From Verrucomicrobiales bacterium (lineage in GTDB: Bacteria; Verrucomicrobiota; Verrucomicrobiia; Methylacidiphilales; JAAUTS01): DNA of 20,839 nucleotides. Made by a program: the position numbers and the translations under genes. Below are positions 1 to 20,839 of the stretch, one piece after another. The notes beneath the pieces are model-generated. The model was not told the DNA's origin. It was given only the letters and a program-made list of their open reading frames with translations, and searched no databases. Position 1 is the stretch's first letter. Each line of letters opens with the position of its first letter. The stretch is taken from the NCBI GenBank assembly GCA_031265105.1, contig JAISDC010000082.1, forward strand, positions 1 to 20,839, written 5' to 3'.

Positions 1-2811
1 GCCGGGCCATTGCCACGGCCCTGGAGTCCGTGACCTCGACCGACGCCACCGCCTGGTTCCGTTCCTGCGGATATACGCCGTGGCCTGTTGAATCCATCTA
101 GTTTTGATGTGCTCTAGGGTGGTGTGGGCTTTCACCAACAGCGGGGGCATGGTCAGCGGGTCGTAGAGGTTGGCTAGGGTGGCGGTGGGGTAGTTGGCGC
201 GGATGTTCAGCACGGCGCGGGCGGCTTGCTCGACTTTGGCGCGTTGCGCCGCTGATGGTGTTGGCCACGGGAAATTGTTGTACACAAGTTTATTGGAGTA
301 GCGGTAGCGAGATTCTAAACGCCCGCAGACTTGTTTGGTCCATGCCATGTGCATCGCTGACGATAACACGCCAAAATGATAAAGCGTAGCTTCAGGGATG
401 GCGGCACAACTATTATGCACGATGGTTTTTGTCGTAAAATAACCGAACGGAATATAAGTACGTGTTTCCGAAGTGTGAAGTGGAACCAAAATATAAGTTT
501 TTTTCGGTTGCCGAATTTCCGCGAACAGCGACGGTGTTTTTGCTACCTCGCGGGTGGGAGCTTTTTTGCTCGCCAAACGAAAATCTTTGCACGCTTGGAC
601 ACGCTTTTTCACGCCGGGATTTTCCGCAATTATTTTTGGCGGTGCATCCACCAGCCACAGACAATAGCGCCGCTGACCATGAAGAAATTCTTCGGCGGAA
701 ACCATCGGGCGCACATACGGTGCCGCTGACGGATTGTCTTTGATAAATTGCGCGCGTTCGTTTTCCTCAATAATCAAATGCCCACCGTCAGCGGGTTTGT
801 TGCCGTAGATGATGGACGGCACATCGCACAATGGTTTGGAGCGCGACGTAATCACACTGTCAGCGCCTTCAATTAAATACGGGTTGATGTTTTTGACCGC
901 GCTGATGGTGGAATGTTCATCGTCAGCGACGTAGTCGTAGATTTTTTTGTGGTCACGGTCAGCGATGCCGAAACCGATGATGACGCAATGCACGTGCGCT
1001 TTGCCGGGCGCTTCGCTCGCCCATTTGAAGGTGTGGTGGGCGAAGTGAATTTTAACGCCACGCTGGAACAAACGCGACCAGAGCGCGCCGGGTTGTTCGC
1101 CTTGCGTGATGCTGTTGGTGGAGACGAAGGCTGCGCTGATGGTGAAATTTTTTTGCATATACTCCACTGCTTTCACATACCATGCGGTGACGTAATCCAA
1201 AATACCCGTGCCGTTGACGGTGCCGAAGACGCGCTCCATGTCTTGCGATTGCTCGACGGTCATCAAATGTTTGCCGACAAACGGCGGATTGCCCAGCACG
1301 TAGCTGCACGCTGACGGTGGCAGGATTTTTTCCCAGTCCACCGTCAGCGCGTTGGCGAGGTGGATGTGCGGGGCGGCTTTGAGTGGCAGGCGTTTGAATT
1401 GTTGTCCCATTTTTTCCGCCAGTTCGCTGTTACTTTGGTGGTCTTGCAGCCACAGGCCGACTTTGGCGATGCGGGCGGGCCATTCGCTGATTTCAATGCC
1501 ATAGAATTGGTCAACGTCCACGCACGCGAGGTTGCGGATGTCGAGTTCGGTTTGGACTTGACCGGCAGCGTCCCGATGCAGCGCGACGATGACGGCGTTT
1601 TCCATGACGCGCAGTTCGCGGTAGGCGAGGATGAGGAAGTTGCCGCAGCCGCAGGCGGGGTCGAGGAGTTTGATGTGACGCAGTTTTTTTGGGAACTCTT
1701 TCAAGCGCGTTACGCGGCGCGAGGAGCGGTCGCTGACGATGAGGCGCAGTTCGTCGCGGAGTTCGTTGAGGAACAGGTCGTTGAGCAACTTCATGATGTC
1801 GCGCTCGCCGGTGTAGTGCGCGCCGAGTTGCCGCCGCGCCTGGTCGTCCATGACGCCTTGGAAGAGCGAGCCGAAGATGGCGGGGGAGATTTTCGCCCAC
1901 TGGTAATCGCAGCAGCGGAGGAGCGCGTCGCGTTGCGCGGTGTCGAAGTGGCACACGGGCAGACGGTCGGCGAAGAGTCCGCCGTTGACGTGCGGGAACA
2001 GGTCGAATGTTGCGTGGCGCTGACGGCGCGCCGGCTCGGTGTCGAGTGTCCACCATAGTTCCGCGAGGGTGCCGCCGAGGTGGCGCGGCTCGGTGTGGCG
2101 GATGAGTTCGGTGAAACTTTGCGGCTCGAAGATGAACGAGTCTTCCGCGAACAGGCAAAAGAGCAGGCGCACGAGGTAACGCTCCAGTTCGCGGCGCGGG
2201 TAGTTGGTCGCTGACAGTGAGTCGTGCAAGTCGGCGAGGAGTTGCGCGGCTTTGATGTTCGCCGCGCGCTCGGTGTGGACGCGGACGCGCTGTTCGCCGA
2301 CGAGGAAGGCGAAGTCGCGGACGTGTTGCGGCAGGTCGCTGAGGGTGAACTCGGTGAGGTGATATTGGTGGTCGTCGAAGAGGGGGAGACCGAGGCGGTG
2401 GTCTTGCGGGTCGAGGTCAATGATGCGGAAGCGGGCGAAGTCGCACAGGACGATGAAGCGCGGGAGGTCGTTATGGCGACCGTCAGCGGCGAGGTCATGG
2501 ACGTAGCCGATGGCTTGCTGCTGCGCGGTGTCAATGTCGGCGCCGCGTGATTTGTGTTCGACGAGCATGACGCCTTTCCAGAAAAAATCAATGAACCCGC
2601 GCCCGCCGCTGACGGTGGCGACGGGGACTTCAAACGCGCCGAGGACGCGGCTGGGCAGACCGAAGGCGGCGAGGAGTTCGTGCCAGAAGAGTTGTTTGTC
2701 GGCGTTTTCGCGGGAGGCAGTTTTCCATGTGTCGGCGAAGCGCGCGGCGTTGGCGCGGATTTCCGCCCAAGTGAGCCGCGCTGACGGTGTGGGGTGCCGC
2801 TGTGGTTCCAT
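1..2811 (-). CDS. MmeI-family Type IIL/IIG restriction-modification enzyme (endonuclease plus N6-adenine methyltransferase fusion). Partial: the C-terminus lies beyond the window start.
   Basis: I translated the reverse complement myself. Frame-0 reading starts at ATG 2811..2809 (MEPQRHPTPSARLTWAEIRANAARFADTWK...). The upstream in-frame stop is the GNAT TAG at 2889..2887. N-terminal nuclease motif D-x9-E-x-K sits in GRGFIDFFWKGVMLVEHKSRG, as in MmeI (GFVDLFWPGILLIEMKSRG). Further blocks that match the MmeI sequence as I recall it: YLVRLLFCLFAEDSFIFE, RISPAIFGSLFQGVMDDQARRQLGAHYTGE, LDPACGCGNFLILAYRELR (SAM motif I), VLGNPPFVGK (NPPF motif IV), AFVSTNSITQGEQ, AHVHCVIIGFG, GRLESRYRYSNKLVYNNFPWP, LYDPLTMPP. 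There is no in-frame stop down to position 1, so the gene is at least 936 codons. It is not in the ORF track because it has no in-window stop. The last ~35 in-window codons are R/W-rich and atypical. Confidence 0.85.
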   Translation of the reverse strand, partial: MEPQRHPTPSARLTWAEIRANAARFADTWKTASRENADKQLFWHELLAAFGLPSRVLGAFEVPVATVSGGRGFIDFFWKGVMLVEHKSRGADIDTAQQQAIGYVHDLAADGRHNDLPRFIVLCDFARFRIIDLDPQDHRLGLPLFDDHQYHLTEFTLSDLPQHVRDFAFLVGEQRVRVHTERAANIKAAQLLADLHDSLSATNYPRRELERYLVRLLFCLFAEDSFIFEPQSFTELIRHTEPRHLGGTLAELWWTLDTEPARRQRHATFDLFPHVNGGLFADRLPVCHFDTAQRDALLRCCDYQWAKISPAIFGSLFQGVMDDQARRQLGAHYTGERDIMKLLNDLFLNELRDELRLIVSDRSSRRVTRLKEFPKKLRHIKLLDPACGCGNFLILAYRELRVMENAVIVALHRDAAGQVQTELDIRNLACVDVDQFYGIEISEWPARIAKVGLWLQDHQSNSELAEKMGQQFKRLPLKAAPHIHLANALTVDWEKILPPSACSYVLGNPPFVGKHLMTVEQSQDMERVFGTVNGTGILDYVTAWYVKAVEYMQKNFTISAAFVSTNSITQGEQPGALWSRLFQRGVKIHFAHHTFKWASEAPGKAHVHCVIIGFGIADRDHKKIYDYVADDEHSTISAVKNINPYLIEGADSVITSRSKPLCDVPSIIYGNKPADGGHLIIEENERAQFIKDNPSAAPYVRPMVSAEEFLHGQRRYCLWLVDAPPKIIAENPGVKKRVQACKDFRLASKKAPTREVAKTPSLFAEIRQPKKTYILVPLHTSETRTYIPFGYFTTKTIVHNSCAAIPEATLYHFGVLSSAMHMAWTKQVCGRLESRYRYSNKLVYNNFPWPTPSAAQRAKVEQAARAVLNIRANYPTATLANLYDPLTMPPLLVKAHTTLEHIKTRWIQQATAYIRRNGTRRWRRSRSRTPGPWQWPG

Positions 2812-2886: not shown

Positions 2887-3285
2887 CTAACGGTGGGCGT
2901 TATCAATGACCCCGCCGCGGAGAATGTGGAAGCCGTGGTCGCGGTAGAAGGATTCTTTTTCCGGGACAAAGGTGGTCCAGATACATTGGATGCCGTCCGT
3001 GGTCAGCGCGGTGACCGCGGTGGAGATTAGTTTTGCGCCGAGACCTTGTTTTTGATACTGCGGGTGGACGATGATGTTGACTAACAAAGCGTCGCCAACG
3101 CCGTCACTGATGACGTTTAAGAAAGCCGCCAGCCGCTGACGGTCACGCGCCGTGAAATAGCAGTACGAACCGCGCAACACCCGGGCTTGGGTGTGTTCGC
3201 AAGGTTCCCAGCCGACCGCCGCGCGCAATGCGGCGATTTCTCCGGGGGTGACGGGCTGGTTGCGTTCGATGGGTGGCAGTGTCAT
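2887..3285 (-). CDS. GNAT-family N-acetyltransferase, 132 aa
   Basis: ATG at 3285. Acetyl-CoA binding block Q/R-x-x-G-x-G/A is present (HPQYQKQGLGAKLISTAV). Size and beta-alpha layout are typical of small GNATs. The stop is 75 bp upstream of the RM gene start on the same strand. Confidence 0.75.
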   Translation of the reverse strand: MTLPPIERNQPVTPGEIAALRAAVGWEPCEHTQARVLRGSYCYFTARDRQRLAAFLNVISDGVGDALLVNIIVHPQYQKQGLGAKLISTAVTALTTDGIQCIWTTFVPEKESFYRDHGFHILRGGVIDNAHR

Positions 3286-3371: not shown

Positions 3372-3716
3372 ATGCCTGTTCTCAAAATCCAAACCAATCT
3401 TGTCCTCAGCAGCCAGGAACAGCAAGACGTGCTAAAAGCCGTCTCGCGATTGGCGGCCAAGGAGCTTGGCAAGCCGGAGCGTTATGTCATGGTCAGCGTC
3501 GAGACCGCCGCCGCCATGCTGTTCGGCGGCACCGACGATCCCTGCGCATTCGTTGAATTATGCAGTCTCGGACTGCCCGCTGACCAGGCGGCGCGCTTGT
3601 CGGCGATGATTTGCGGTTTATTAAAAGAGTCGCTGAACCTCGACCCGCGGCGGGTGTATATCAGGATGTCCGATCACCCGGCCAACCTGTGGGGGTGGAA
3701 CGGGGAGACGTTTTGA
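3372..3716 (+). CDS. macrophage migration inhibitory factor (MIF)-like protein of the tautomerase superfamily, 114 aa, Pro-1 type
   Basis: MPVLKIQTN...YVMVSV...GGTDDPCAFVELCSLGL...RVYIRMSDHPANLWGWNGETF aligns end to end with mammalian MIF (MPMFIVNTNVPRA...[32 protein letters not shown]...[22 protein letters not shown]). Length is identical (114 aa). The catalytic Pro immediately follows the Met. Confidence 0.8.
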   Translation: MPVLKIQTNLVLSSQEQQDVLKAVSRLAAKELGKPERYVMVSVETAAAMLFGGTDDPCAFVELCSLGLPADQAARLSAMICGLLKESLNLDPRRVYIRMSDHPANLWGWNGETF

Positions 3717-3812: not shown

Positions 3813-5621
3813 ATGTCGCTCCTGCAACTCAACAACATCACGCTGCAATACGGCGCGGCGCCCTTGCTCGCTGGCGTCGATTTCCAGCTCGACGAGGGCG
3901 AGCGCGTGTGCTTGCTGGGCCGCAACGGCACGGGCAAGACCAGCCTGCTGCGGGTCATCGCCGGCGAGGAAACGCCCAACGGCGGCGAGGTCATCGTCAG
4001 CGGCGGTAAAATCATCACGCGGCTGCCGCAGGAAATTCCTGACAACTTAACCGGCGACACCGTCAGCGTCATTCGCGACGGACTGCCCGCTGACCGTCAC
4101 GAGGAGGAATGGGAAACGGCACGGCGCATCGAGACGCTGCTGGCGGCGATGAAGCTGCCCGCTGACGCTGACTTCACGGCGCTGTCCGGCGGCCTGCGGC
4201 GTCGCGTGCTGCTGGCGCGGGCACTGGCGGGGCGGCCCGACGCGCTGCTGCTCGACGAGCCGACCAACCATCTCGACATCGACTCGATTCTGTGGCTGGA
4301 GAATTTTTTGCTGGCGCAAAAAACCGCGTTGCTGTTCACCACGCACGACCGCGCGTTCCTGCAGCGGCTGGCCACGCGCATCGTCGAACTGGATCGCGGC
4401 AAACTCTCCTCGTGGGACTGCGATTACGCAACCTACCTTGTCCGCAAGGAAGCGTGGCTCGAAGCCGAGGAAAAAAACTGGGCGACATTCGATAAAAAAC
4501 TGACGCAAGAAGAAGCCTGGCTGCGGCAAGGGGTCAAAGCCCGCCGCACCCGCAACGAGGGCCGGGTCCGCGCGCTGGAGCAAATGCGCCGCGAGCGCAG
4601 CCAGCGGCGCGAACGGCTCGGCAACGCCAGGCTCAGCCTCAGCGAGGCCGAGGTGTCGGGCCGCAAAGTCATCACCGCCGAAAACCTCGGCTTCACCTAC
4701 GGCGACCGCCCCATCGTCAGCGGCTTCAGCACGGAAATCTGGCGCGGCGACAAAATCGGCATCATCGGCCCGAACGGCGCGGGCAAGACCACGCTACTGA
4801 AATTATTGCTGGGGCAACTATCACCGTCAGCGGGCCGCGCGCGGCACGGGACGAATTTGCAAGTTGCCTATCTCGACCAACTCCGCGCCATCAATAACGA
4901 GAAAACCGTGGCGGAGAATGTCGCCGGCGCCGCGGCAAGCATCACATTCCAGGGCCGGTCGCGACATATTCATAGTTACTTGTCAGACTTCCTGTTCGCG
5001 CCCGACCGCGCGCGCTCTCCCGCCAAGGTTTTGTCCGGCGGCGAGCGCAACCGGCTGCTGCTGGCAAAATTGTTTTTGCAACCCGCCAACGTGCTGGCGC
5101 TTGACGAACCGACCAACGACCTCGACGCCGAGACGCTGGAGTTGCTGGAAAATTTATTGGTGGAATACGACGGCACGCTGCTGCTGGTGTCGCACGACCG
5201 CGCCTTCCTGGACGAAGTTTGCGCCAGCACGCTGGTGTTCGGCGCTGACGGTGAGGTGACGGAATACCATGGCGGCTATAGCGATTGGTTGAAGCACGCT
5301 GCCAATGAACGAAAAATATCATCCGCTGACACTGACACAAAAAAATCCCCCGCTGACGTGGCGGTGAAAAAATCCTGCCGCCCGCGCAAATTCCTTAATC
5401 GCGAACAATGGGAGCTTGACGCCCTGCCTGGCAAAATCGAGCGACTCGAAGCCGAGCAAGAGCAAGTTTCGCAACAACTCTGGGATCCCGAACTATACCA
5501 AAAATCGCCTGAGAAAATCCCCGAACTCAAGTCACGTTCAGCGGCGCTGGAACAGGAAAGCAAAGCCGCCTACGCCCGCTGGGAGGAACTGGAGCAGCTC
5601 CGCCGGGAGTGCGGTGGCTGA
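3813..5621 (+). CDS. uup: ABC-F family ATP-binding protein Uup (tandem ABC domains plus C-terminal coiled-coil/DNA-binding tail)
   Basis: MSLLQLNNITLQYGAAPLL...GRNGTGKTSLLRV (Walker A 1), LSGGLRRRVLLARAL (signature 1), LLLDEPTNHLD (Walker B 1), GPNGAGKTTLLK (Walker A 2), LSGGERNRLLLAKL (signature 2), LALDEPTNDLD (Walker B 2), and the QEEAWLRQGVKARRTRNEGRVRALEQMRRER linker. It is collinear with E. coli Uup (MSLISMHGAWL...). The ORF-track start at 3717 is a TTG immediately after the MIF stop, so I prefer the in-frame ATG at 3813. Confidence 0.9.
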   Translation: MSLLQLNNITLQYGAAPLLAGVDFQLDEGERVCLLGRNGTGKTSLLRVIAGEETPNGGEVIVSGGKIITRLPQEIPDNLTGDTVSVIRDGLPADRHEEEWETARRIETLLAAMKLPADADFTALSGGLRRRVLLARALAGRPDALLLDEPTNHLDIDSILWLENFLLAQKTALLFTTHDRAFLQRLATRIVELDRGKLSSWDCDYATYLVRKEAWLEAEEKNWATFDKKLTQEEAWLRQGVKARRTRNEGRVRALEQMRRERSQRRERLGNARLSLSEAEVSGRKVITAENLGFTYGDRPIVSGFSTEIWRGDKIGIIGPNGAGKTTLLKLLLGQLSPSAGRARHGTNLQVAYLDQLRAINNEKTVAENVAGAAASITFQGRSRHIHSYLSDFLFAPDRARSPAKVLSGGERNRLLLAKLFLQPANVLALDEPTNDLDAETLELLENLLVEYDGTLLLVSHDRAFLDEVCASTLVFGADGEVTEYHGGYSDWLKHAANERKISSADTDTKKSPADVAVKKSCRPRKFLNREQWELDALPGKIERLEAEQEQVSQQLWDPELYQKSPEKIPELKSRSAALEQESKAAYARWEELEQLRRECGG

Positions 5622-5725: not shown

Positions 5726-5965
5726 GAATTGATGGCGGCAGCCCGCTGTTAGTCTCCAGGATTTGTCGTACTTGTCGCCGAAAGAGGCTTCGTAGTCGAG
5801 GTGGAGTTGATTGTCAGCGTCAGCGCCGGGGGCTCGGTAATCTATATCGCTGCGGCCGTAACCGGCGTAAATTCCCAGATAGAGGTCACTGTCAGTGGAC
5901 AAGGTAAACTTAGTTATTTGTTCTTGGTTAAAATAGTGGTTTGAGGCTTGGTTGCTTCCCGCGCG
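5726..5965 (-). pseudogene. start-less remnant of an autotransporter beta-barrel domain, paralogous to the 3' end of the autotransporter at 18264..20839
   Basis: Minus-strand frame reads ...QEQITKFTLSTDSDLYLGIYAGYGRSDIDYRAPGADADNQLHLDYEASFGDKYDKSWRL... The autotransporter reads KFTLSADSDLYLGVFAGYGRSDLDYRTPGTDGELNSYYGG. About 80/99 nt are identical between 5813..5911 (reverse complement) and 20388..20486. The remnant has no Met start and is bounded by in-frame stops (TGA at 5968..5966, TAA at 5725..5723). Confidence 0.45.
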
Positions 5966-6078: not shown

Positions 6079-6109
6079 TTGCTAGTCGAGGTCACTGTCA
6101 GCGTAGCAT
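6079..6109 (+). promoter_or_regulatory. candidate copA promoter with a 19-bp spacer (TTGCTA - 19 - TAGCAT). This geometry is typical of MerR/CueR-type metal-responsive promoters.
   Basis: TTGCTA at 6079-6084, a 19-nt spacer, TAGCAT at 6104-6109. Partial dyad GTCACTGTCAG in the spacer. No cueR gene is visible in the window. Confidence 0.2.
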
Positions 6110-6182
6110 CGGAATCATGACTGCCGGCGGCCAGGAACATTTTGCCGTTTGCGGGGCGCGGGGGCGGTGGCATACTCGCGGC

Positions 6183-8366
<2,184 letters not shown>

Positions 8367-11251: not shown

Positions 11252-11313
11252 GCCGCCAGCCTAGCCGCTGACCGTGCCAAAGTCAGGCGGAATCGACGGC
11301 TTGGGTAATGCTG

Positions 11314-12632: not shown

Positions 12633-13856
12633 TCAACCGCACCGCGCCCCGTCCACCATGAACAACGCCGGCTTGCCCCGCGCGGCGGTCACCGCCAGAT
12701 ACGGATCCGTCCGCTCCGGCAGCGGGAACGCCACCAGGTCCGCCAGCGCGCCGCCGGCGATGACGCCCAGGACGCCCGCCTGGCCGAGTTGCGCGGCGGG
12801 CACGGTGGTCACCATGCGCAACCCTTCCTCGGCGCTGACGGCGGGGTGGGCGCGGCAGAACGCGCGCACCTCCGCGCGCAGATCCAGCACGTCGTTGCTC
12901 GCCAAACTGTCGGTGCCCAGCGACACGCTGCAACCGGCCGCGCGCAGGCGCTCGTACGGGAACCGCGCGCGGCCGAAGTAGGCGTGGCAGCGCGGGCAAT
13001 GCACCACCGGCAGCGGTTGCCGGCGCAGCAGCAGTTCATCGCGCGCCGACACGTGGTTCAAGTGCGCCACCAGGCATTGCGCGTCCAGCAGCCCGTCCGC
13101 CAGCAGGCGGGCCAGCGCGGAGTCCTGCCCGCAATCGCCCATGTCGCGGCCCGCGCCCCGGAAAAACTCGAACAGCGCGCCCCGCCGGTGCGCGAACATC
13201 TCTTGCTCCTCGTCGGACTCCGCGACGTGCGTGGTCAGCAACAGCCCCTCGCGCCGCGCCAGGCGCAGCGCGCGCCGGTATAACCACGCGCTGGCGGTGT
13301 ACGGCGCGTGCGGGCTGAGGCCGCCGCCGCCCGGCCACGCGCGGCTGCGCGCGAAGAACTCCAGCGCCAGCGTCAGCGCCTCGTCCGCCGCCGCCCGCGA
13401 GCGCGCGTCAATCAACTCGACGCACCACCACGTCCGCAACGGCGGGCGCGGCAGCAACGGCAGCACTTCGGGAAACGCCGCGATGTTGCACACCGTCGTG
13501 CAGCCGCTGTCGGCGAGTAATTGGAACCCGCGCGCGATGGCGGCCAGCCAGTCGCTGACGGTGAAGCTGCGCTTGAGGGTGTTGATGCGTTTTATCCACT
13601 CGGTGAACGGCAGCCCCGGCGGAATCGCGCCCTGGAGATTGGTGTAATCCAAATGGCAGTGCGCGTTAATCAACCCCGGCAGCAACACGCACCCCGGCAA
13701 GTCCAGCACCGTTTCGCCCGCCGCCGGCGTCAACCCCGCGCCGACCGCCGCGATGCGGTTGCCGCTGACCCTGACCGCCGCGCCCGCCAGCGGCGGCCCG
13801 GTCATCGTCAGCGTCATGGCGGGGCGGATGAGCATGGCCGTAATGCGCTCGCGCAT
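12633..13856 (-). CDS. metal-dependent amidohydrolase of the TRZ/ATZ, SsnA/MtaD-like deaminase family
   Basis: HxH metal-binding motif (LINAHCHLDYT). Downstream His/Asp ligands (TTHVAES, LVAHLNH, SLGTDS). Its start overlaps the def stop by 1 nt (TGATG). Confidence 0.7.
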   Translation of the reverse strand: MRERITAMLIRPAMTLTMTGPPLAGAAVRVSGNRIAAVGAGLTPAAGETVLDLPGCVLLPGLINAHCHLDYTNLQGAIPPGLPFTEWIKRINTLKRSFTVSDWLAAIARGFQLLADSGCTTVCNIAAFPEVLPLLPRPPLRTWWCVELIDARSRAAADEALTLALEFFARSRAWPGGGGLSPHAPYTASAWLYRRALRLARREGLLLTTHVAESDEEQEMFAHRRGALFEFFRGAGRDMGDCGQDSALARLLADGLLDAQCLVAHLNHVSARDELLLRRQPLPVVHCPRCHAYFGRARFPYERLRAAGCSVSLGTDSLASNDVLDLRAEVRAFCRAHPAVSAEEGLRMVTTVPAAQLGQAGVLGVIAGGALADLVAFPLPERTDPYLAVTAARGKPALFMVDGARCG

Positions 13857-14407
13857 CAGCGCGGCTGCGCGCGCAAACCGGCGAGTTTGTCCTTCAACTG
13901 CTCGCGCTCGGCGGCGCTCAGTTTGTCGATGAACAGCACGCCGTGCAAGTGGTCGAACTCATGCTGCACCGCGCGCCCCAGCAAGCCGCCCGCCTCAAAC
14001 TCGCGCGGTTGCAAATCCAGGTCCTGGTACCGCACCTTGACGCGGAAGCCGCGGTTGAGGTCGATGTTGATGCCGGGGAAGCTCAGGCAACCCTCGTTGT
14101 CGAGTTCCTTTTTCTTGGTGATTTCGATGTGCGGATTGATGAGCGTCAGCGGCATGATGCTTTGCACATCGGCCTCCTTGCCGTCCAGCCACAGGCGCGA
14201 CTTGCGCTTCGAGTCGGCGGGAATGTCAATCACCGCCAGTTGCAGCGCGCGCCCGACCTGCTGCGCCGCCAGCCCGACGCCCTCGGCTTTGCGCATCGTG
14301 TCGAGCATGTCCCGCGCGAGTTGGCGCAATTCCGGGGTTACTTTGCCGACCGTCGCGCCCCGCTGCCGCAGCACCGGGTCGCCGTATTTCACTATGGGTA
14401 AAATCAT
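13856..14407 (-). CDS. def: peptide deformylase
   Basis: Motif 1 GVGLAAQQVG, motif 2 EGCLSFPG, motif 3 QHEFDHLHG (HExxH). The ORF-track start at 14449 is a TTG. I prefer ATG 14407 (MILPIVKYGDPVL...), which matches Def N-termini. Confidence 0.85.
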   Translation of the reverse strand: MILPIVKYGDPVLRQRGATVGKVTPELRQLARDMLDTMRKAEGVGLAAQQVGRALQLAVIDIPADSKRKSRLWLDGKEADVQSIMPLTLINPHIEITKKKELDNEGCLSFPGINIDLNRGFRVKVRYQDLDLQPREFEAGGLLGRAVQHEFDHLHGVLFIDKLSAAEREQLKDKLAGLRAQPR

Positions 14408-14454: not shown

Positions 14455-15927
14455 TTATTGCTGTCCGCTGGCCGGGGGCGCTGACGGTGCCGGCGCGGGT
14501 TGCGCGGGCGGCGCCGGTTCAGCGTCAGCGGCGGGGGTGCCGAGGACGGACGGGAGTTTGAGGCCGACGTTGTTGAGCAATTCGTGCAGCGGCGGCAGCG
14601 CCGTCGCCAGCTTGTTCAAAAAGTTCGCGGTGCTGGTGCCGCCGTTCGCGCCGCCGTTGTCCCAGACGACGACTTTGTCGAATTTGATGTTCTTGATCGC
14701 CTCGGTTTGCGCGCCGACGAGCACGGGCATTTGTTCGACCAGCAGCAGATTGATTGCCAGCGCCGGGTTCGCGCCGGCGGCTTTGGTCAGGCGCTCGAAG
14801 CCCTCGGCGCGGCCGTTCAGCGCGGCCTTGATGCCGTCGGCCTCGGCGAGGCGCAGTTGCCGCAAGCCGTCGGCCTCCGCGGTTTTGACGGCGAGCAAGC
14901 CGTCGGCCTCGCCCTGCTTGGTTTTGCGCACGGCGTCGGCGGCGCCCTCGGCGGTTTTCACGCGCACGGCGGCGTCCGCCTCGGCCTGGATGACTTGCTG
15001 CGATTTGGTCTGGCGCGCCGGCACCAGCACGTCGGCCTCGTACGTCGCCTCGGTCACGCGGGCGCGCGCCATCTCGGCCTCCTGTTTGGCGAGCGCGGAG
15101 TTTTTCGCGGTCAGCGCGACGGCGACTTGCTCGGCGGTCTCGGCGAGTTTGCGCGCCTCGGCCTCGCGCGTGCGCCGCGCGGCGTCACTGTCAGCGATGG
15201 CGACCAGCGAGGTGTTCTCGCCCTGCCGCGTCTCGGCTTGCAGCGCGGCGACGGTCACGGCCTGCTCCATGCGCGCGCGGGCGGCGCCGACCGCGCCGTC
15301 GCGGTCCGCCTCGGCGACGCGGATGCTGGCGGTGTTGATGCGCTCGGCGGCGACTTCCTTGCCCAGCGAGTCGATGTAGCCGACGTCGTCGGTGATGTCG
15401 CGGATGTTGACGTTAATGAGGCGCAGGCCGATTTTTTCCAACTCGACGGAAATGGAGTCGCGCACGCTGACCAGCAGTTTGTCACGGTCAGCGTTGATTT
15501 CCTCAATCGAGAGCGAGGCGATGACCTGGCGCATCTGGCCGGTGATGATGTCGAGCGCGCTGGACATGATTTGCGGCAGCGTGAGGCCGAGCAGGCGCTC
15601 CGCGGCGTTCTGCATGATTTCCGGCTCGGTGGACAGGCCGATCATGAACGTGCTCGGCACGTCCACGCGGATTTTTTGCAACGACAGCGCGTCCTCCAGG
15701 TTGACCTCGACGCTGACGGGGCGCAAGTCCATGTATTGATAACCTTGGATGACCGGCCACACAAACGAGCCGCCGCCGTGGATGCAGCGCGCGCCGCGGC
15801 CGCCGGCGACTTTGCCGTAGATGACGAGGATGCGGTCGGACGGGCATTTTTTGTAGCACTTCAACAGTGACAGCATGGTCACGAAAAACAACAGTGCGAC
15901 GGCGATGATGGCGATGGCGAATGACAT
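14455..15927 (-). CDS. flotillin-like SPFH/band-7 protein (YqiK/FloT-like)
   Basis: N-terminal TM segment, SPFH core, and a long Ala/Glu-rich coiled coil (AEAEARKLAETAEQ...AEADGLRQLRLAEADGI). AAGGAA Shine-Dalgarno sequence 7 nt upstream of the ATG. Confidence 0.85.
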   Translation of the reverse strand: MSFAIAIIAVALLFFVTMLSLLKCYKKCPSDRILVIYGKVAGGRGARCIHGGGSFVWPVIQGYQYMDLRPVSVEVNLEDALSLQKIRVDVPSTFMIGLSTEPEIMQNAAERLLGLTLPQIMSSALDIITGQMRQVIASLSIEEINADRDKLLVSVRDSISVELEKIGLRLINVNIRDITDDVGYIDSLGKEVAAERINTASIRVAEADRDGAVGAARARMEQAVTVAALQAETRQGENTSLVAIADSDAARRTREAEARKLAETAEQVAVALTAKNSALAKQEAEMARARVTEATYEADVLVPARQTKSQQVIQAEADAAVRVKTAEGAADAVRKTKQGEADGLLAVKTAEADGLRQLRLAEADGIKAALNGRAEGFERLTKAAGANPALAINLLLVEQMPVLVGAQTEAIKNIKFDKVVVWDNGGANGGTSTANFLNKLATALPPLHELLNNVGLKLPSVLGTPAADAEPAPPAQPAPAPSAPPASGQQ

Positions 15928-15981: not shown

Positions 15982-16554
15982 TTACTCACCGTCAGCGAGC
16001 GGCTCGACGGCGACGCCGGTGCCCTCCAGCCGCAGCACCCGCACCTCCGTGCCGAACGGCGCCGCGCGGTCGCTGACGTTGAACGCCTTGACGGAAACTT
16101 TGCGCCCGCCGCTGACGACGGTGATTTCACCCGCGCCCGCGCCGCGCGGCGGCAGCGGCAAATACACGGTGCCGCTGGCGCCGACAGTTTGCGTCAACTG
16201 GAACGTGCCGTCCTCCGCCAGCCGCGCGAACTGGCGCATCAGCCACACCAGCAGCGCCGCCAGCGCGAACCCGACCAGCGCCGCGAGCAGGGTCGCGGAC
16301 ACGGCGCCGAGGCCGAGTTGCAAACAGCACAAGCCGCCCCAGCCGCTGCCGGTGGCGAACGCGGTGATGGCCTTGAACGAAAACCAGTGTACGCCGGCGT
16401 CACCGTCAGCGTCGGGCGAGTCGAAATCACCGTCAGCGCCGAACAAAGCCATGCCGCCCTGGGCGACGAGCATGGCGGTGCCGAGGATGCCGAGCGTCCA
16501 AAAAATCCGCGCGGCCAGCTCCAGCCCGTCCCACCATTCGACGATAGCATTCAT
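15982..16554 (-). CDS. NfeD-family membrane protein (short YuaF-like form), partner of the downstream flotillin
   Basis: N-terminal hydrophobic helices and a C-terminal OB-fold-like block (GEITVVSGGRKVSVKAFNVSDRAAPFGTEVRVLRLEGTGVAVEPL). This is the conserved nfeD-SPFH operon arrangement. The ORF-track start 16593 is a TTG; I prefer ATG 16554 (MNAIVEWW...). Confidence 0.7.
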   Translation of the reverse strand: MNAIVEWWDGLELAARIFWTLGILGTAMLVAQGGMALFGADGDFDSPDADGDAGVHWFSFKAITAFATGSGWGGLCCLQLGLGAVSATLLAALVGFALAALLVWLMRQFARLAEDGTFQLTQTVGASGTVYLPLPPRGAGAGEITVVSGGRKVSVKAFNVSDRAAPFGTEVRVLRLEGTGVAVEPLADGE

Positions 16555-18129: not shown

Positions 18130-18140
18130 CTAGCCTCATT

Positions 18141-18248
18141 AACGCAAAGACGCAAAGGAACAAAGTAACGCAAAGATTTTTGTTAATTGAAAAACCAAAC
18201 CAAAAAAATCTTCGCGCCTTTGCCCCTTTGTTCCTTTGCGTTAATGCA
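18141..18248. terminator. family B inverted-repeat element pair forming a long hairpin after the 251-aa gene
   Basis: Left arm ATTAACGCAAAGACGCAAAGGAACAAAGTAACGCAAAG, then ATTTTTG. Right arm AAAAAATCTTCGCGCCTTTGCCCCTTTGTTCCTTTGCGTTAAT. Homologous copies are at 11343-11394 and 12533-12553. Confidence 0.55.
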
Positions 18249-18263
18249 GCTCAAAAAAACTTT

Positions 18264-20839
18264 ATGAAAACCTCCAACATGAAAACACGAAAACTAACCC
18301 TGATACTAACCCTCCTCTGCGCCCTCAGCGTCTCCGCGTTGAACATCTTCGCGGAAAACAAAATCGTCAATACCGGCACCGTGGTGGAATCCGGCAGTAC
18401 CTACGCCGCCTCCACCAATCAGTCGGCCCTGACGGTCAGCGGCAGCGGGACGCTGTACGAGGGCACTAACCTTACTTTGTCCAGCACCGAGACCAACCAG
18501 CATGGCGTCTTCGTCAACACCCAAGGCGCGCTATCGTTACGTGACAGCACGGTTTTCACTTCCGCCACTGGCGCTTACGGCATTGCGTTGACCACCACCT
18601 CGTCCGCCAGCCTGGAACGTGTCGCGGTCACGGTCAGCGAAGCGTTTTCGCATGGCATCTATATGTTGAACTCCAAGCTGTCCGTGACCGACGCGACAGT
18701 GGTGATTTCGGCATCCAATAGGAACGGTCATTTCGACGGAATATACATCGGCAACACCAGCGAAGCTGATTTGACAAATGTGAGCGTAGAATTACGGGGC
18801 GACCAGACCAACGGCATCAGCATCCTCAACACCGCCACCGACAAAAGCACCGTCACGGCCACCGGTATCAACATTGCCGCGCAAGGCGAACTTGCCGACG
18901 GTCGGGCCAATGTCAGCGGTGTCACCGTAGAAGGTAACGCGGACCTGCAAATGCGCGATTTTTTAGTCACGGTGCGCGACGGTAATGCGGGCGTGAACAC
19001 TTGGACGAACCCTATACTACGGGTTGACGAGTTTGTGACGCTGCGCAGCGGCACCATCATTATGATTGATAGCGGCGCCGGGATTAATGTCGGCGGCAAC
19101 GGTAATCGCTATGTGGCATTGCACGATGTGGCTATCAGCGCGAGCGGCGAGGACACCCATGCCATTCTTATGGACACGCGCGGGTTGGACATTGATGACA
19201 AAGTTCTGCTGGTTGACGGCGGCAAGTTCATCGCCGAAAACGGGGCGGCGCTCCGGGTGGGGCTGTTCGGCGAGACATCCGAGCTCAATGCCACGCAGTC
19301 CGCGGGCGCCAACTATACCGTCACCATCACCGGCAGCGCCGCCCTCAGCGGCACGGCGGCCATGGAATTCGGCACCACCGCCATTGCCCCCAGCGGCACG
19401 GCCTACGAACTGGTCAACCACGCCCGCATAACCGTGGCGGATGGCTCCACCCTCACCGGTGCCACCAACATCCACGGCAACTCCGACGTGAATATAGAAC
19501 TCACCGACAACTCCGCCCTGACCGGCGACCTTACCGCCAGCGGCTCGTCCAACACCACCCTCAGCGGCAGCAACGGCGCCACCATCACCGGCACCGTCAG
19601 CGGCAACGATAACGCCGTCATCGACCTCACCGTCAGAGGCCCCGGCAGCACCATCATCAGTGACATTAACCAAAACGACGACGCAGCCGTCACCATCACC
19701 CTCGATAACAGCGCCACCGGCCAAGGCGGCTACCACGGCGGCAACCTCATCACCGGCAGCGATAGCACCTGGACTTTTGACAAGGACAGCCACGGCAACT
19801 ACGGCGAAAACAATGGCACTTGGAACATCGGCGACTACGAAGTCATCTTCGATAACATGACCCACACCGGCACCGTTAACATCAGCGTCAACACCGACAC
19901 CGGCGACGGCGGCTCTATCACTGTGGATACCGCTGACGGTGAAGGCACCGTCCACATCGACACCACCGGCAACGGTAAACTCAACCCCAACGACGTACTC
20001 CCCGGCGTCGTCACCGGCGACGGCACGGAACACTGGCAATGGGATCCCATCGACTGGGGCATCGACACCATCATCAAAGACGGCGACCACTTCATCAAAC
20101 AAGGCACCAGCCCCGCCGGCGCAGAATTGAACAGCAGCGTAGCCATCCAACAAGCCAGGTGGTTCGCGCAGCAAAACAGCCTGCTCAAACGCATGGGTGA
20201 CCTCCGCTTTTCGTCATCCCGTCAACTCGTCACCTCGTCGTCTGACAAAGCCGTCACCCTCAGCGCTGCCAACCTGATCGAAAACATCTGGCTCAGAAGC
20301 TACGGCCAACAATTAAACGTCGGCAGTAAAGTATCAGGCAAAGCCTACGAACAACTCATCTACGGCGTGGACTTGGGCACTGACCATAAGTTCACCTTGT
20401 CCGCTGACAGTGACTTATATCTGGGCGTCTTCGCCGGTTACGGCCGCAGCGACCTCGACTACCGCACCCCCGGCACTGACGGTGAACTCAACTCCTACTA
20501 CGGCGGCCTCTACGCCACGTGGTTACACAGCAGCGGCCTCTACATCGACGCTACCGTCAAAGCCGCCAGCGTGGACAACAATCTAAAAGCTCCCTACAGC
20601 GGCAGTCAAATCACCGCCAACTACAGTGATGTGAACCTCGGCGGCAGCATCGAAATCGGGAAGAAGTTCACCTTCGCTGATGATTGGTTCATCGAACCCC
20701 AGTTTCAAGTCAACTACCTCCACATCCTCGCCGAGGACTATCAAGCCGGCCCCATGAGCATCACCGCCAGCGACCTCGACGCCCTCCAGTTCAGAATCGG
20801 CAGCGTATTCGGCCGCACCCTCAAGCTCGCCAACGGCGG
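18264..20839 (+). CDS. classical (type Va) autotransporter: signal peptide, Gly/Thr/Asn-rich beta-helical passenger, C-terminal beta-barrel. Partial: runs off the window end.
   Basis: MKTSNMKTRKLTLILTLLCALSVSALNIFA signal peptide. The passenger has repetitive beta-helix-like tracts (TLSGSNGATITGTVSGNDNAVIDLTV...). The junction reads AIQQARWFAQQNSLLKRMGDLRF...NIWLRSYGQQ, followed by barrel strands (YLGVFAGYGRSDLDY...GGLYATWLH...GGSIEIGKKF...). No stop occurs before 20839, hence it is absent from the ORF track. Confidence 0.85.
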   Translation, partial: MKTSNMKTRKLTLILTLLCALSVSALNIFAENKIVNTGTVVESGSTYAASTNQSALTVSGSGTLYEGTNLTLSSTETNQHGVFVNTQGALSLRDSTVFTSATGAYGIALTTTSSASLERVAVTVSEAFSHGIYMLNSKLSVTDATVVISASNRNGHFDGIYIGNTSEADLTNVSVELRGDQTNGISILNTATDKSTVTATGINIAAQGELADGRANVSGVTVEGNADLQMRDFLVTVRDGNAGVNTWTNPILRVDEFVTLRSGTIIMIDSGAGINVGGNGNRYVALHDVAISASGEDTHAILMDTRGLDIDDKVLLVDGGKFIAENGAALRVGLFGETSELNATQSAGANYTVTITGSAALSGTAAMEFGTTAIAPSGTAYELVNHARITVADGSTLTGATNIHGNSDVNIELTDNSALTGDLTASGSSNTTLSGSNGATITGTVSGNDNAVIDLTVRGPGSTIISDINQNDDAAVTITLDNSATGQGGYHGGNLITGSDSTWTFDKDSHGNYGENNGTWNIGDYEVIFDNMTHTGTVNISVNTDTGDGGSITVDTADGEGTVHIDTTGNGKLNPNDVLPGVVTGDGTEHWQWDPIDWGIDTIIKDGDHFIKQGTSPAGAELNSSVAIQQARWFAQQNSLLKRMGDLRFSSSRQLVTSSSDKAVTLSAANLIENIWLRSYGQQLNVGSKVSGKAYEQLIYGVDLGTDHKFTLSADSDLYLGVFAGYGRSDLDYRTPGTDGELNSYYGGLYATWLHSSGLYIDATVKAASVDNNLKAPYSGSQITANYSDVNLGGSIEIGKKFTFADDWFIEPQFQVNYLHILAEDYQAGPMSITASDLDALQFRIGSVFGRTLKLANG

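Follow-up and report, generated by a model that had tools for sequence, protein, structure and literature searches.

The DUS of the Neisseriaceae (GCCGTCTGAA and its dialects) has the minor pilin ComP as its receptor, and the USS of the Pasteurellaceae come in AAGTGCGGT and ACAAGCGGT types. Known uptake sequences occur at ~1 per kb, and the accumulation of Pasteurellaceae USS is explained by molecular drive through uptake bias and recombination. The highly iterated palindrome HIP1 of cyanobacteria (GCGATCGC) is a further abundant word, while Chi, KOPS and other architecture-imparting sequences are over-represented, species-specific oligomers that a DNA-processing machine reads. Like these last, the word described here, GTCAGCG, is an over-represented oligomer specific to its lineage. 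It was studied in a window of 20.8 kb (20,839 nucleotides, the whole stretch of DNA analysed). The window is a complete contig from the MAG of an uncultured termite-gut Verrucomicrobiota; an MmeI-type RM enzyme, uup, copA, cls, flotillin and an autotransporter are among its genes, as correctly named in the earlier note.

On both strands together, the window holds 79 copies of GTCAGCG (41 as GTCAGCG on the plus strand and 38 as CGCTGAC), compared with 4.79 +/- 2.29 (maximum 12) in 100 dinucleotide-preserving shuffles of the window. This 16.5-fold excess confirms, at a higher count, the ~70 copies and ~16-fold excess reported earlier, and ranks GTCAGCG first among the 7-mers of the window, above every GC-rich low-complexity word. 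The 5′ flank of the 79 copies favours T at -5 (43/79), C at -4 (60/79), A at -3 (61/79), Y at -2 (60/79) and C at -1 (45/79), and the 3′ flank favours G at +1 (34/79) and C at +2 (48/79), giving an extended consensus of ~12 bp, T-C-A-Y-C-GTCAGCG-n-C; conservation of the flanks had been proposed before, and reaches beyond the positions then named. The 11-mer CACCGTCAGCG occurs 18 times in the window, against 1.1 expected from a synonymous-codon shuffle. The motif resembles two hexamers in tandem, TCAYCG + TCAGCG, and overlapping doubles of the word are frequent. All three local duplications listed in the earlier note exist: GTCAGCGTCAGCG, an overlapping double, was correctly placed (5813-5825), while CGCTGACGCTGAC lies at 4160-4172 rather than 4162 and CGCTGACACTGAC at 5324-5336 rather than 5328. 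Copies are found in 13 of the 14 genes and three are intergenic, in keeping with the earlier description of a word in nearly every gene and in the DNA between genes. Spacing of the word is near random (CV 1.06-1.17), with plus and minus orientations interleaved. The density of ~4 per kb, or ~4.5% of the DNA when copies are scored as 12-mers, is several times that of known uptake sequences, for which 'up to ~2% of the chromosome' is given. Each copy is listed below with the match of its 5′ flank to TCAYC out of five (full 12-mer, 5/5). D1 denotes dialect 1, GTCAGCG, the word of clade A (W, which is the window, L002, L003 and L005), and D2 denotes dialect 2, RTTAGCG, the word of clade B (L004, L200 and L201).

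152..158 (+), copy GTCAGCG, flank gcatg 3/5, MmeI-family gene antisense
355..361 (-), copy, flank ttatc 4/5, MmeI gene sense
671..677 (-), copy, flank tcatg 4/5, MmeI gene sense
724..730 (-), copy, flank aatcc 2/5, MmeI gene sense
787..793 (+), copy, flank ccacc 4/5, MmeI gene antisense
859..865 (+), copy, flank acact 3/5, MmeI gene antisense
922..928 (+), full 12-mer, flank tcatc 5/5, MmeI gene antisense
958..964 (+), copy, flank tcacg 4/5, MmeI gene antisense
1309..1315 (-), copy, flank ccacc 4/5, MmeI gene sense
1343..1349 (+), copy, flank ccacc 4/5, MmeI gene antisense
1731..1737 (-), full 12-mer, flank tcatc 5/5, MmeI gene sense
2018..2024 (-), copy, flank gcgcc 3/5, MmeI gene sense
2209..2215 (-), copy, flank tcact 4/5, MmeI gene sense
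2482..2488 (+), copy, flank cgacc 3/5, MmeI gene antisense
2607..2613 (-), copy, flank ccacc 4/5, MmeI gene sense
2779..2785 (-), copy, flank acacc 4/5, MmeI gene sense
3002..3008 (+), copy, flank ccgtg 2/5, GNAT antisense
3134..3140 (-), copy, flank tgacc 4/5, GNAT sense
3492..3498 (+), copy, flank tcatg 4/5, MIF sense
3578..3584 (-), copy, flank gcctg 2/5, MIF antisense
3996..4002 (+), full 12-mer, flank tcatc 5/5, uup sense, common to L002 only
4062..4068 (+), copy, Uup column 108, D1 in W, L002 and L005, D2 in L004 and L200
4088..4094 (-), copy, flank tgacg 3/5, uup antisense
4160..4166 (-), overlapping double CGCTGACGCTGAC, Uup column 140, D2 in L200
4166..4172 (-), overlapping double, uup antisense
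4716..4722 (+), copy, Uup column 326, 4/4 clade-A, D2 in 3/3 clade-B Uup genes
4826..4832 (+), full 12-mer, flank tcacc 5/5, uup sense
5243..5249 (-), full 12-mer, Uup column 502, orthologous D2 in clade B
5324..5330 (-), copy CGCTGACACTGAC, uup antisense, within 27-bp repeat
5351..5357 (-), copy, Uup column 543, orthologous D2 in L200/L201
5813..5819 (+), overlapping double GTCAGCGTCAGCG, intergenic
5819..5825 (+), overlapping double GTCAGCGTCAGCG, intergenic
6097..6103 (+), copy, flank tcact 4/5, copA sense
6212..6218 (-), copy, flank tcacg 4/5, copA antisense
6674..6680 (+), copy, flank ccacc 4/5, copA sense
6842..6848 (-), copy, flank acatc 4/5, copA antisense
6942..6948 (+), copy, flank tcgtc 4/5, copA sense
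7204..7210 (-), copy, flank cgaac 2/5, copA antisense
7257..7263 (+), copy, flank cgatg 2/5, copA sense
7432..7438 (-), copy, flank cgacg 2/5, copA antisense
7465..7471 (-), copy, flank cgacc 3/5, copA antisense
7508..7514 (+), copy, flank cgact 2/5, copA sense
7711..7717 (-), copy, flank cgacc 3/5, copA antisense
7800..7806 (+), copy, flank tgctg 2/5, copA sense
8769..8775 (-), copy, flank tcaaa 3/5, rmuC sense
8905..8911 (+), copy, flank gcaat 2/5, rmuC antisense
9401..9407 (+), copy, flank ggttg 1/5, rmuC antisense
9854..9860 (+), copy, flank tcggc 3/5, cls antisense
9893..9899 (+), copy, flank tcaac 4/5, cls antisense
10164..10170 (+), copy, flank cctgg 1/5, cls antisense
10361..10367 (+), full 12-mer, flank tcacc 5/5, cls antisense
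10645..10651 (-), copy, flank tgcag 1/5, cls sense
10982..10988 (-), copy, flank tccat 2/5, cls sense
11266..11272 (-), copy, intergenic
12394..12400 (-), copy, flank ccacc 4/5, GDSL lipase sense
12833..12839 (-), copy, flank ccgcc 3/5, amidohydrolase sense
13372..13378 (+), copy, flank ccagc 3/5, amidohydrolase antisense
13553..13559 (-), full 12-mer, flank tcacc 5/5, amidohydrolase sense
13763..13769 (-), copy, flank tcagg 3/5, amidohydrolase sense
13807..13813 (+), full 12-mer, flank tcatc 5/5, amidohydrolase antisense
14145..14151 (+), copy, flank tgagc 3/5, def antisense
14479..14485 (-), copy, flank gcacc 4/5, flotillin sense
14524..14530 (+), copy, flank tcagc 4/5, flotillin antisense
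15110..15116 (+), copy, flank tcgcg 3/5, flotillin antisense
15190..15196 (+), copy, flank tcact 4/5, flotillin antisense
15465..15471 (-), copy, flank tgctg 2/5, flotillin sense
15487..15493 (+), copy, flank tcacg 4/5, flotillin antisense
15711..15717 (-), copy, flank gcccc 3/5, flotillin sense
15991..15997 (+), full 12-mer, flank tcacc 5/5, hyp203 antisense
16071..16077 (-), copy, flank tcaac 4/5, hyp203 sense
16110..16116 (-), copy, flank ccgtc 3/5, hyp203 sense
16405..16411 (+), full 12-mer, flank tcacc 5/5, hyp203 antisense
16432..16438 (+), full 12-mer, flank tcacc 5/5, hyp203 antisense
18435..18441 (+), copy, flank tgacg 3/5, autotransporter sense
18633..18639 (+), copy, flank tcacg 4/5, autotransporter sense
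18912..18918 (+), copy, flank ccaat 2/5, autotransporter sense
19596..19602 (+), copy, flank gcacc 4/5, autotransporter sense
19931..19937 (-), full 12-mer, flank tcacc 5/5, autotransporter antisense
20402..20408 (-), copy, flank tcact 4/5, autotransporter antisense

The GTCAGCG word is a signal at the DNA level, as the earlier note had maintained. The coding DNA of the window contains 76 copies, compared with 14.4 +/- 3.2 (maximum 27) in 1000 synonymous-codon shuffles that keep protein and codon usage fixed, and five of the six reading frames are used, the sixth being the one that would make a TGA stop. Codon or dipeptide bias, named earlier as a possible source of the excess, fails to explain it. 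Preferences for particular amino acids, dipeptides or codons (V-S-G, A-D-G, for example), with the word as their by-product, or the remnants of REP/MITE mobile repeats, would be in line with the uneven frames (23, 4 and 10 copies in sense; 13 and 26 in antisense), with protein sequences alone lifting the expected copies from 4.8 to 14.4, and with the autotransporter gene, whose 6 copies against 2.4 expected are accounted for by T-V-S-G-type repeats. However, besides the codon shuffle, the word is read in five frames on both strands and encodes unrelated peptides, outgroup orthologues encode similar proteins without it, and its coding density of 3.22 per kb is matched by 3.62 per kb in intergenic DNA (six clade loci pooled, 97.6 kb). 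Copies stand singly as 12-mers, and similarity does not continue into the sequence around them, unlike in a true REP/MITE-like element present in L202. The shuffle, frame use, outgroup orthologues and intergenic density refute both peptide or codon bias and mobile repeats, which we regard as exceedingly improbable.

The same six loci hold 144 sense and 141 antisense copies, and the two strands of three loci carry 41:38 (the window), 36:33 and 50:35, in agreement with the earlier claim of no strand bias. This balance argues against Chi, KOPS and transcription-linked signals. Chi, KOPS and the other architecture-imparting sequences are strongly co-oriented with replication and occur once per several kb, whereas the word is ~50:50 in every locus at ~4 per kb, and a Chi/KOPS-type signal was rejected on strand and orientation balance. 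Adjacent inverted pairs were not enriched (19 vs ~26 expected), and the arrangement is not terminator-like.

Within clade A the word is genome-wide, and it is strictly clade-restricted. GTCAGCG reaches hyper-abundance (2.7-4.9 per kb) in all contigs sampled from the closest relatives. These include unlinked contigs, with 4.2 per kb on L207, 2.7 per kb on L208 and 2.8 per kb on L209 (the recA locus), and the non-syntenic flanks of L003 (4.9 per kb) and L005 (3.9 per kb), so that enrichment extends beyond the window, a point on which the earlier note had staked its claim. It is at background, 0-0.43 per kb, in 40 loci from more distant relatives, and likewise in 33 relatives from metagenomes whose Uup is <=70% identical, in L202 (68%) and in L210 (RecA 91%); neither GTCAGCG nor RTTAGCG is abundant in ~75 more distant relatives. 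The foreign-looking segments poor in the word are the RM island of L209, 1-4.5 kb of L205, and the autotransporter and repeat region of the window, while low-GC genes as a class are not word-depleted after composition control (O/E 16.5 vs 21.4).

The MmeI-family Type IIL enzyme of the window (1-2811, minus strand) raises the question of whether the word is its site, CGCTGAC, with the penultimate A methylated as a mark. In form, CGCTGAC resembles an MmeI-family site, predicted contacts fit positions 2-6 (Y642/K645, C; L751/N773, T or Y; S774/R810, purine; E806/R808, C), and D1 and D2 differ at bases beside the would-be target adenine. However, K723 with E738 is the signature of C for position 1, which is G in the word, and orthologues of the enzyme nowhere exceed 67% identity. 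In addition, P0130 (from the MAG of L003) and P0122 (L208), both from D1 carriers, have K806/D808, which predicts G as the last base (site ...AG), and the P0130 residues for positions 1-4 differ too. This indicates that enzyme specificity varies while the word stays constant. Restriction sites are also normally avoided, whereas the word is enriched 16-fold. The position-1 signature and the varying specificity among D1 carriers largely refute this reading, which is very unlikely.

In clade B, RTTAGCG has the same architecture as its clade A counterpart and reaches 4.0 per kb, with 43 copies in L200 compared with 2.45 +/- 1.6 expected. The split between dialects follows phylogeny, and the dialects differ by transitions only (C to T, G to R, A to R; flank T-C-A to T-C-R). 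At least seven orthologous Uup positions, identical in column, frame and strand, hold D1 in clade A, D2 in clade B and neither in outgroups; chance overlap would give <0.1 sites. This replacement of one dialect by the other and the strict clade restriction lend new support to the earlier reading of the word as an uptake-like sequence or other genome-wide signature. Between ~23% diverged species, word sites are bimodal, with 48 perfectly conserved (17 expected), 32 with 1-2 mismatches (71 expected) and 23 with 4-5 mismatches (6 expected), and overall retention is 33-59% compared with 15-28% under neutral decay. Existing sites persist 2-3x longer than expected under neutral decay, and new sites are gained by multi-base change.

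Hyper-abundant copies, indifference to orientation, confinement to a clade, a switch of dialect and bimodal sites would be expected as well from a DNA-modification or mismatch-repair-linked process that targets the word, as in a HIP1-like genome signature. Such a process, for example a very-short-patch-type repair enzyme acting with a methyltransferase or another form of biased gene conversion, is a possible but doubtful source of the word; it would turn near-matches into matches without DNA uptake, and the dialects might then, with similar doubt, reflect changed enzyme specificity. Consistent with this, D1 and D2 differ by transitions alone, and HIP1, a hyper-abundant word of unknown function, occurs outside competent lineages. 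HIP1 shares with the word a density of ~1 per kb or more, presence in all frames and intergenic DNA, lineage variants and an unproven function. However, HIP1 is a palindrome tied to methyltransferase sites, and the word, with five further conserved flank positions, is asymmetric, unlike HIP1 and most methyltransferase or Vsr targets. One-mismatch neighbours in carriers show no repair-type signature, as deamination-type variants are not specifically depleted (GTTAGCG, 3 vs 4.5 expected; GTCAGTG, 14 vs 10 expected). C-restoring repair also fails for clade B, which favours the form with T, and the loci examined hold no candidate enzyme.

The long persistence of sites would also suit a dense array of binding sites under selection for some chromosomal role unrelated to uptake. 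The sites could be bound by a sequence-specific protein of the nucleoid or of condensin loading, for instance, or could mark resident DNA as 'self' and shield it from a nuclease or defence system (Chi-like in logic but orientation-independent). Equal coding and non-coding densities, the absence of the word from some accessory or foreign-looking segments, and tandem hexamers with frequent overlapping doubles, which suit a multimeric DNA-binding protein, all favour such an array. Yet none of the known nucleoid, segregation and Chi-type systems relies on a 12-bp motif at ~4 sites per kb, placed at random relative to replication and transcription, Chi/KOPS-type signals are strongly skewed where the strands of the three loci are not, and selecting thousands of intragenic sites individually would be costlier than drive. 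We therefore judge an array unlikely.

The word most closely follows the uptake sequences. Like the Neisseriaceae DUS, it is non-palindromic and ~12 nt long, its core strong and its flanks less so, is hyper-abundant genome-wide in either orientation, genic and intergenic, avoids stop-making frames, and is confined to one clade with few-base dialects tracking phylogeny. It differs in its phylum, Verrucomicrobiota (uncultured termite-gut MAGs), in a density ~4 times higher, in having no enriched inverted-repeat pairs or terminators, and in its unrelated sequence, the CCGTC-G overlap with the neisserial DUS being superficial and of no evidential weight. As with the Pasteurellaceae USS, sites are mostly single and in coding DNA at about the coding proportion, orientations are equal, the core has graded flanks, two dialects occur in sister sub-clades, and molecular drive would be the shared explanation. 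Unlike the USS, the word is denser, GC-rich in its core, without AT-rich flanking tracts and reminiscent of a tandem hexamer (TCAYCG-TCAGCG), and its uptake role is putative.

We consider it about an even chance (~50%) that GTCAGCG serves its lineage as a DUS/USS-type sequence for recognizing 'self', spread by a drive that is sequence-specific and most probably consists in uptake bias. Its reader would then be a DNA-uptake receptor, and the host bacteria would be competent. Word-bearing fragments would be favoured by a component that binds DNA sequence-specifically, most probably the receptor of a natural-transformation (uptake) machine, and would enter cells and recombine at a higher rate than other fragments; mutations that create or improve a copy would thereby be over-transmitted, a molecular drive. 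Copies would build up to ~4 per kb, in either orientation, wherever protein code or regulation allows. In the sister lineage, receptor specificity may have shifted from G-T-C-A-G-C-G to R-T-T-A-G-C-G (flank T-C-A to T-C-R), after which the genome's copies would have changed to the new dialect at their existing positions. Such drive predicts depletion in foreign-looking DNA, which is seen in particular segments only, and every evolutionary signature found is also expected from any other sequence-specific drive or from binding-site selection. The literature holds no report of transformation in Verrucomicrobiota, nor of any such word outside Neisseriaceae and Pasteurellaceae, and comparison with it upheld the earlier statement that the word matches no known dialect or published signal. 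The only documented class to combine the hyper-abundance, DNA-level maintenance and neutrality to orientation, frame and coding status observed here with confinement to a clade, dialects that switch at orthologous sites, and maintenance and directional gain of copies is that of the Neisseriaceae and Pasteurellaceae uptake sequences, dialects and stop-frame avoidance included (PMC3630211; bioRxiv 10.1101/2025.10.24.684340). Outside these termite-gut bacteria, the pattern is known solely from Neisseria and Haemophilus relatives, in their DNA-uptake sequences.

The 20,839-bp window contains 79 copies of the word GTCAGCG or its complement CGCTGAC (plus strand 41, minus strand 38), where 100 dinucleotide-preserving shuffles gave 4.79 ± 2.29 copies and a maximum of 12, and GTCAGCG is the top-ranking 7-mer of the window by count. 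The earlier note had set the number of copies slightly too low and had placed two coordinates 2-4 nt off, while the rest of its description was accurate. When the 79 copies are aligned, the 5′ flank is conserved at T(-5) in 43/79, C(-4) in 60/79, A(-3) in 61/79, Y(-2) in 60/79 and C(-1) in 45/79, the 3′ flank has a weak G(+1) in 34/79 and C(+2) in 48/79, and there is no information content beyond positions -5 to +2. This flank conservation indicates a unit of about 12-14 nt, TCAYC-GTCAGCG-nC. The 11-mer CACCGTCAGCG is present in 18 copies in the window, the 12-mer has the appearance of a hexamer tandem (TCAYCG + TCAGCG), and overlapping doubles of the word (GTCAGCGTCAGCG) are frequent. An imperfect 27-bp repeat at 5297-5357 (CGCTGACAATGAACGAAAAAAATCACC, 2.3 copies), which lies in the C-terminal linker of uup and consists of word copies and A-rich spacers, suggests that copies of the word arose here by slippage or duplication.

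The genes of the window are listed below.

1-2811, minus strand, MmeI-family Type IIL RM enzyme, partial
2887-3285, minus strand, GNAT acetyltransferase
3372-3716, plus strand, MIF-family protein
3813-5621, plus strand, Uup (ABC-F)
5952-8366, plus strand, CopA
8488-9627, minus strand, RmuC
9767-11251, minus strand, cardiolipin synthase
11486-12445, minus strand, GDSL lipase
12633-13856, minus strand, amidohydrolase
13856-14449, minus strand, Def
14455-15927, minus strand, flotillin
15982-16593, minus strand, hypothetical ORF
17034-17546, minus strand, hypothetical ORF
17868-20837, plus strand, autotransporter, partial

Coding copies number 76 (96% of the window's copies; 37 sense and 39 antisense) and occupy five of the six reading frames, the unused frame, CGC-TGA-C, being the one that would put a stop codon in the gene. 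In 1000 shuffles of synonymous codons within each gene, with proteins and codon usage held constant, 14.4 ± 3.2 coding copies were expected (maximum 27), and the 11-mer was expected 1.1 times against the 18 observed. Because the observed counts far exceed the synonymous-shuffle expectation, the excess sits at the DNA level, as the earlier note had argued in setting aside a peptide motif, and the shuffle together with the frame usage rules out peptide or codon bias as the source of the word. In per-gene shuffles, every gene was enriched apart from the autotransporter gene (6 vs 2.4) and a hypothetical ORF that has 0 copies. Base composition varies strongly inside this one contig, as a comparison of 7000-8500 with 1-1500 illustrates: GC reaches 70-74% in the 3′ half of copA, and the MmeI-family gene has 53% GC in its 3′ half, which is atypically low, yet this gene has the highest word density of the window (5.7 per kb). 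The GC skew also shows large local swings.

The window spans one entire contig of a MAG that carries the NCBI label 'Verrucomicrobiales bacterium', and the accessions of its relatives fall in the range of termite-gut MAGs deposited by Mies et al. 2024 (PMC11257099). When 185,579 species genomes were scanned with Uup as the anchor, 45 loci were recovered, and hyper-abundance was limited to the closest of them: L002 (94% Uup identity) with 3.3 per kb, L003 (80%) with 4.9 per kb, L005 (77%) with 3.9 per kb, and L001, the same organism from another sample's assembly, with 5.7 per kb. The 40 more distant loci had just 0-0.43 per kb. Neither L003 nor L005 shares synteny with the window in its flanks, and these loci therefore represent independent genes. 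Enrichment outside the window, on which the earlier note's suggestion of a genome-wide word depended, was found on three unlinked contigs of carriers, namely L207 from the MAG of L003 (4.2 per kb), L208 (2.7 per kb) and the recA locus L209 (2.8 per kb, 42 copies in 15.1 kb). DNA of clade A, which comprises the window, L002, L003 and L005, totals 263 copies in 64.8 kb on at least five contigs, unlinked ones included. These counts confirm that the word is genome-wide in its carriers, and thousands of copies per genome are implied.

Outside this group, about 75 outgroup loci were negative for the word, among them L202 (68% Uup identity) and L210 (RecA 91%). A JGI metagenome scan with Uup returned zero clade members and 33 relatives (≤70% identity), all without the word, and a scan of viral contigs for a 16-mer form of the motif gave single chance matches only. 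The same 7-mer is enriched on L160, a 14.8-kb IMG/VR viral contig of unknown host (23 GTCAGCG, 1.55 per kb), where the enrichment differs from that of the clade in being strand-polar (17:6) and in having no TCAYC flank. Several compared loci have hyper-abundant words of their own: L037 (Thiomicrospira sp. ALE5) carries the HIP-like palindrome CAGGCCTG in 24 copies vs 0.8 expected, L012 carries TTCCCTAC in 10 copies vs 0.2 expected, and L044 carries TGTATACT in 10 copies vs 0.1 expected. An apparent third dialect in L202 (GTCATCCTGAGC) proved to be an intergenic inverted-repeat element of ~120 bp. This REP/MITE-like element has termini GTCATCCTGAGCTTGTCGAAGGA in convergent pairs ~100-120 bp apart between genes, with 14 termini in 21.8 kb (for example 176/275, 1680/1779, 1860/1960, 11949/12071 and 16835/16955). 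In contrast, 96% of the window's copies of GTCAGCG are genic and their similarity ends with positions -5 to +2, and a dispersed REP/MITE repeat was rejected as the identity of the word.

Our comparison also revealed a second dialect. The locus L004 (76% Uup identity) appeared negative for GTCAGCG, yet its one-mismatch spectrum contained 18 copies of GTTAGCG vs 1.3 expected, within the variant motif tTCG-YC-RTTAGCG. Two relatives recovered via the protein collection share this preference, with 43 copies of RTTAGCG in 10.8 kb of L200 (4.0 per kb, vs 2.45 ± 1.62 copies in shuffles), beside one GTCAGCG, and 12 in 8.3 kb of L201. The 12-mers of the two dialects are TCACCGTCAGCG and TCGTCATTAGCG. 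The Uup identity matrix separates the carriers into two sister clades, with 73-79% identity between them and 61-68% to the outgroups.

Sister clades of carriers by Uup identity, with the dialect of each
Clade A: window and L002, mutual identity 94%; L003 and L005 at 77-80%; dialect 1, GTCAGCG
Clade B: L200 and L201, mutual identity 93%; L004 at 86-87%; dialect 2, RTTAGCG

At seven columns of the Uup codon alignment (108, 140, 326, 502, 529, 543 and 611), clade-A sequences have the dialect-1 word and clade-B sequences the dialect-2 word, in identical frame and on the identical strand, while the outgroups have neither; chance would produce fewer than 0.1 coincidences of this kind. These seven orthologous positions indicate that the sites are older than the split between the clades and switched from one word to the other in situ as the preference shifted.

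Placement of the word shows no preference for strand or transcription. Density is 3.22 per kb in coding and 3.62 per kb in intergenic DNA, and sense and antisense copies stand at 144:141, with six clade loci pooled (97.6 kb). Strand counts are 36:33 in L003, 50:35 in L005 and 16:27 in L200, and orientations are interleaved. The lack of strand bias that had been noted from the window alone (41:38) extends to sense and antisense in the pooled loci, and the absence of both biases rules out a Chi- or KOPS-type polar or transcription-linked signal. Even spacing was not seen, as the spacing of copies is near random (CV 1.06-1.17). Inverted adjacent pairs of the terminator type are not enriched (19 vs ~26 expected), and close direct pairs are mildly enriched (36 vs 26, p = 0.03).

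Certain segments are poor in the word. These include 16.5-18.4 kb of the window (the repeat and autotransporter region), the initial 4.5 kb and the EPS genes of L004/L205, an IS200 transposase, toxin-antitoxin-like ORFs, and a low-GC restriction-modification island on L209, whose centre has 1 copy in 3.6 kb vs 8 per kb in the adjoining cinA. A general depletion in low-GC genes is gone after composition control (O/E 16.5 vs 21.4), and specific segments alone are depleted. The L209 island (350-8071, 41-51% GC) lies directly upstream of cinA-recA in a clade-A MAG and contains an N6/N4 methyltransferase, an Eco57I/MmeI-like methylase fusion and a ResIII helicase. The window's repeat region comprises a perfect 8-bp tandem repeat at 16837-16902 (CGCGCTCA, 8.2 copies, 100% match) and, beside it, an 11-copy 21/42/84-bp array at 17062-17310, which overlaps an ORF with alanine-zipper-like heptad repeats immediately 5′ of the autotransporter gene. 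An analogous pair stands in another genomic context on L002, with a 21/42-bp array of 10.7 copies at 519-762 and a perfect repeat of AGTGCGAG in 10 copies at 870-949. A simple repeat of this kind, perfect and with a non-triplet unit, is a candidate switch for phase variation, and the repeat regions of both the window and L002 are deserts for GTCAGCG.

The history of individual sites bears on how the word is maintained. The Uup gene has 10 copies in the window, 10 in L002, 11 in L003, 5 in L005 and 0 in outgroups; four sites are common to all carriers and several others are lineage-specific. Between species ~23% diverged, site retention is 33-59% vs 15-28% under neutral decay, and mismatches at the partner's orthologous 7-mer follow a bimodal distribution.

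Mismatches at the orthologous 7-mer of the partner
0 mismatches: 48 observed, 17 expected
1-2 mismatches: 32 observed, 71 expected
4-5 mismatches: 23 observed, 6 expected

Old copies are kept, near-matches are scarce, and new copies are acquired via several coordinated substitutions. The same evolutionary signatures would be left by any sequence-specific drive other than uptake, such as a HIP1-like methylation or repair process, which we consider unlikely. A HIP1-type palindromic octamer with a methyltransferase site is ruled out by the asymmetry of the word and its 12-mer context, and no VSR-like repair signature was found in one-mismatch neighbours. Selected binding-site arrays or self-tags would leave these signatures as well, and appear less likely again.

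Because CGCTGAC resembles an MmeI-family site and the gene for such an enzyme adjoins, the contact residues of the window enzyme were mapped. This enzyme has all five MmeI Pfam domains and scores 836 bits to PDB 5HR4, and the published base-contact residues of MmeI (PMC4833311, PMC2731914) were transferred to it by alignment to MmeI.

MmeI contact positions, residues of the window enzyme and predicted base
723 / 738: K / E, predicted C at position 1
642 / 645: Y / K, predicted C at position 2
751 / 773: L / N, predicted T or Y at position 3
774 / 810: S / R, predicted purine at position 4
806 / 808: E / R, predicted C at position 6

The predicted site, roughly C-C-Y-R-A-C, fits the word at positions 2-6 (C-T-G-A-C), and at position 1 C is predicted where the word has G. 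The nearest homologue of the window enzyme anywhere has 67% identity. Two other carriers of dialect 1 have MmeI-family genes that encode K806/D808, predicting G last (a site ending AG), and one of these two enzymes also differs at the residues for the remaining readable bases (positions 1-4). The word is a near miss as the recognition site of the window enzyme, given the mismatch at position 1; there is no conserved orthologue, the homologues in other carriers differ in predicted specificity, and since the word does not track the enzyme, we reject the link. These RM genes are themselves rich in the word (4.6-5.7 per kb). In the MAG of L003, the homologue P0130 (L207 57-2474, 805 aa) is missing most of the N-terminal nuclease domain present in the other family members, and its predicted site is another one, about G-M-C-G-A-G. 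P0130 may represent a methylase-only enzyme or a copy in decay.

After ~40 years of study, sequence-specific uptake words are known from two proteobacterial families only (bioRxiv 10.1101/2025.10.24.684340), and they have been documented in just the Neisseriaceae (DUS) and the Pasteurellaceae (USS) (PMC3630211; bioRxiv 10.1101/2025.10.24.684340). The word shares with DUS and USS its short, non-palindromic form and hyper-abundance far above compositional expectation; its presence in both orientations, in all permissible frames and in coding and intergenic DNA with no replication or transcription bias; its asymmetric ~12-nt structure with a strong core, graded flanks and avoidance of stop-codon frames; its strict clade restriction, with dialects that track phylogeny and replace each other at orthologous positions; and the maintenance of existing copies with directional gain of new ones. 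It differs from known uptake sequences in phylum and in sequence, in a density ~4x higher (~4.5% of DNA counted as 12-mers), and in the absence of terminator pairing. It is neither the neisserial GCCGTCTGAA nor a known dialect with inverted terminator pairs, and the earlier note was right to separate it from every published dialect. Among annotated neighbours in ~110 kb of clade DNA, there are no competence genes except the ubiquitous cinA-recA. Combined, the shared properties constitute the published DUS signature and favour a DUS/USS-like self-recognition word, for which we estimate roughly even odds (about 0.5); biased uptake and homologous recombination would have spread it through the genome.

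Alternatively, the word may have nothing to do with uptake and instead reflect a system, so far undescribed, by which Verrucomicrobiota write or self-tag their genomes in a sequence-specific manner, a reading to which we give a low probability. In one example of such a system, a DNA-binding protein linked to recombination, repair or defence would place a 12-bp tag roughly every 250 bp and keep it there, and a specificity switch between sister lineages would rewrite thousands of sites in place. In the literature searched, the GTCAGCG word was not found described as a genomic signal, nor was any link found between uptake sequences or competence and Verrucomicrobiota. At the least, the word would be a new variant of uptake sequence from a phylogenetically remote group, one that comes with its own pair of dialects, and at the most a new kind of genome-wide sequence-specific process.

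The word can serve as a free taxonomic or 'self-DNA' marker for binning and for the detection of foreign DNA in these MAGs. In addition, two close dialects with switched orthologous sites provide an ideal natural experiment, both for identifying the receptor by co-variation and for testing the molecular-drive model. Should the word not be related to uptake, it would point to a new genome-wide process with sequence specificity, an even more interesting outcome. If it is a self-recognition word spread by uptake, uncultured termite-gut Verrucomicrobiota would provide a third, remote case, which would mean that this form of bacterial mate recognition evolved repeatedly and would imply that natural transformation takes place in a phylum not so far known for it.
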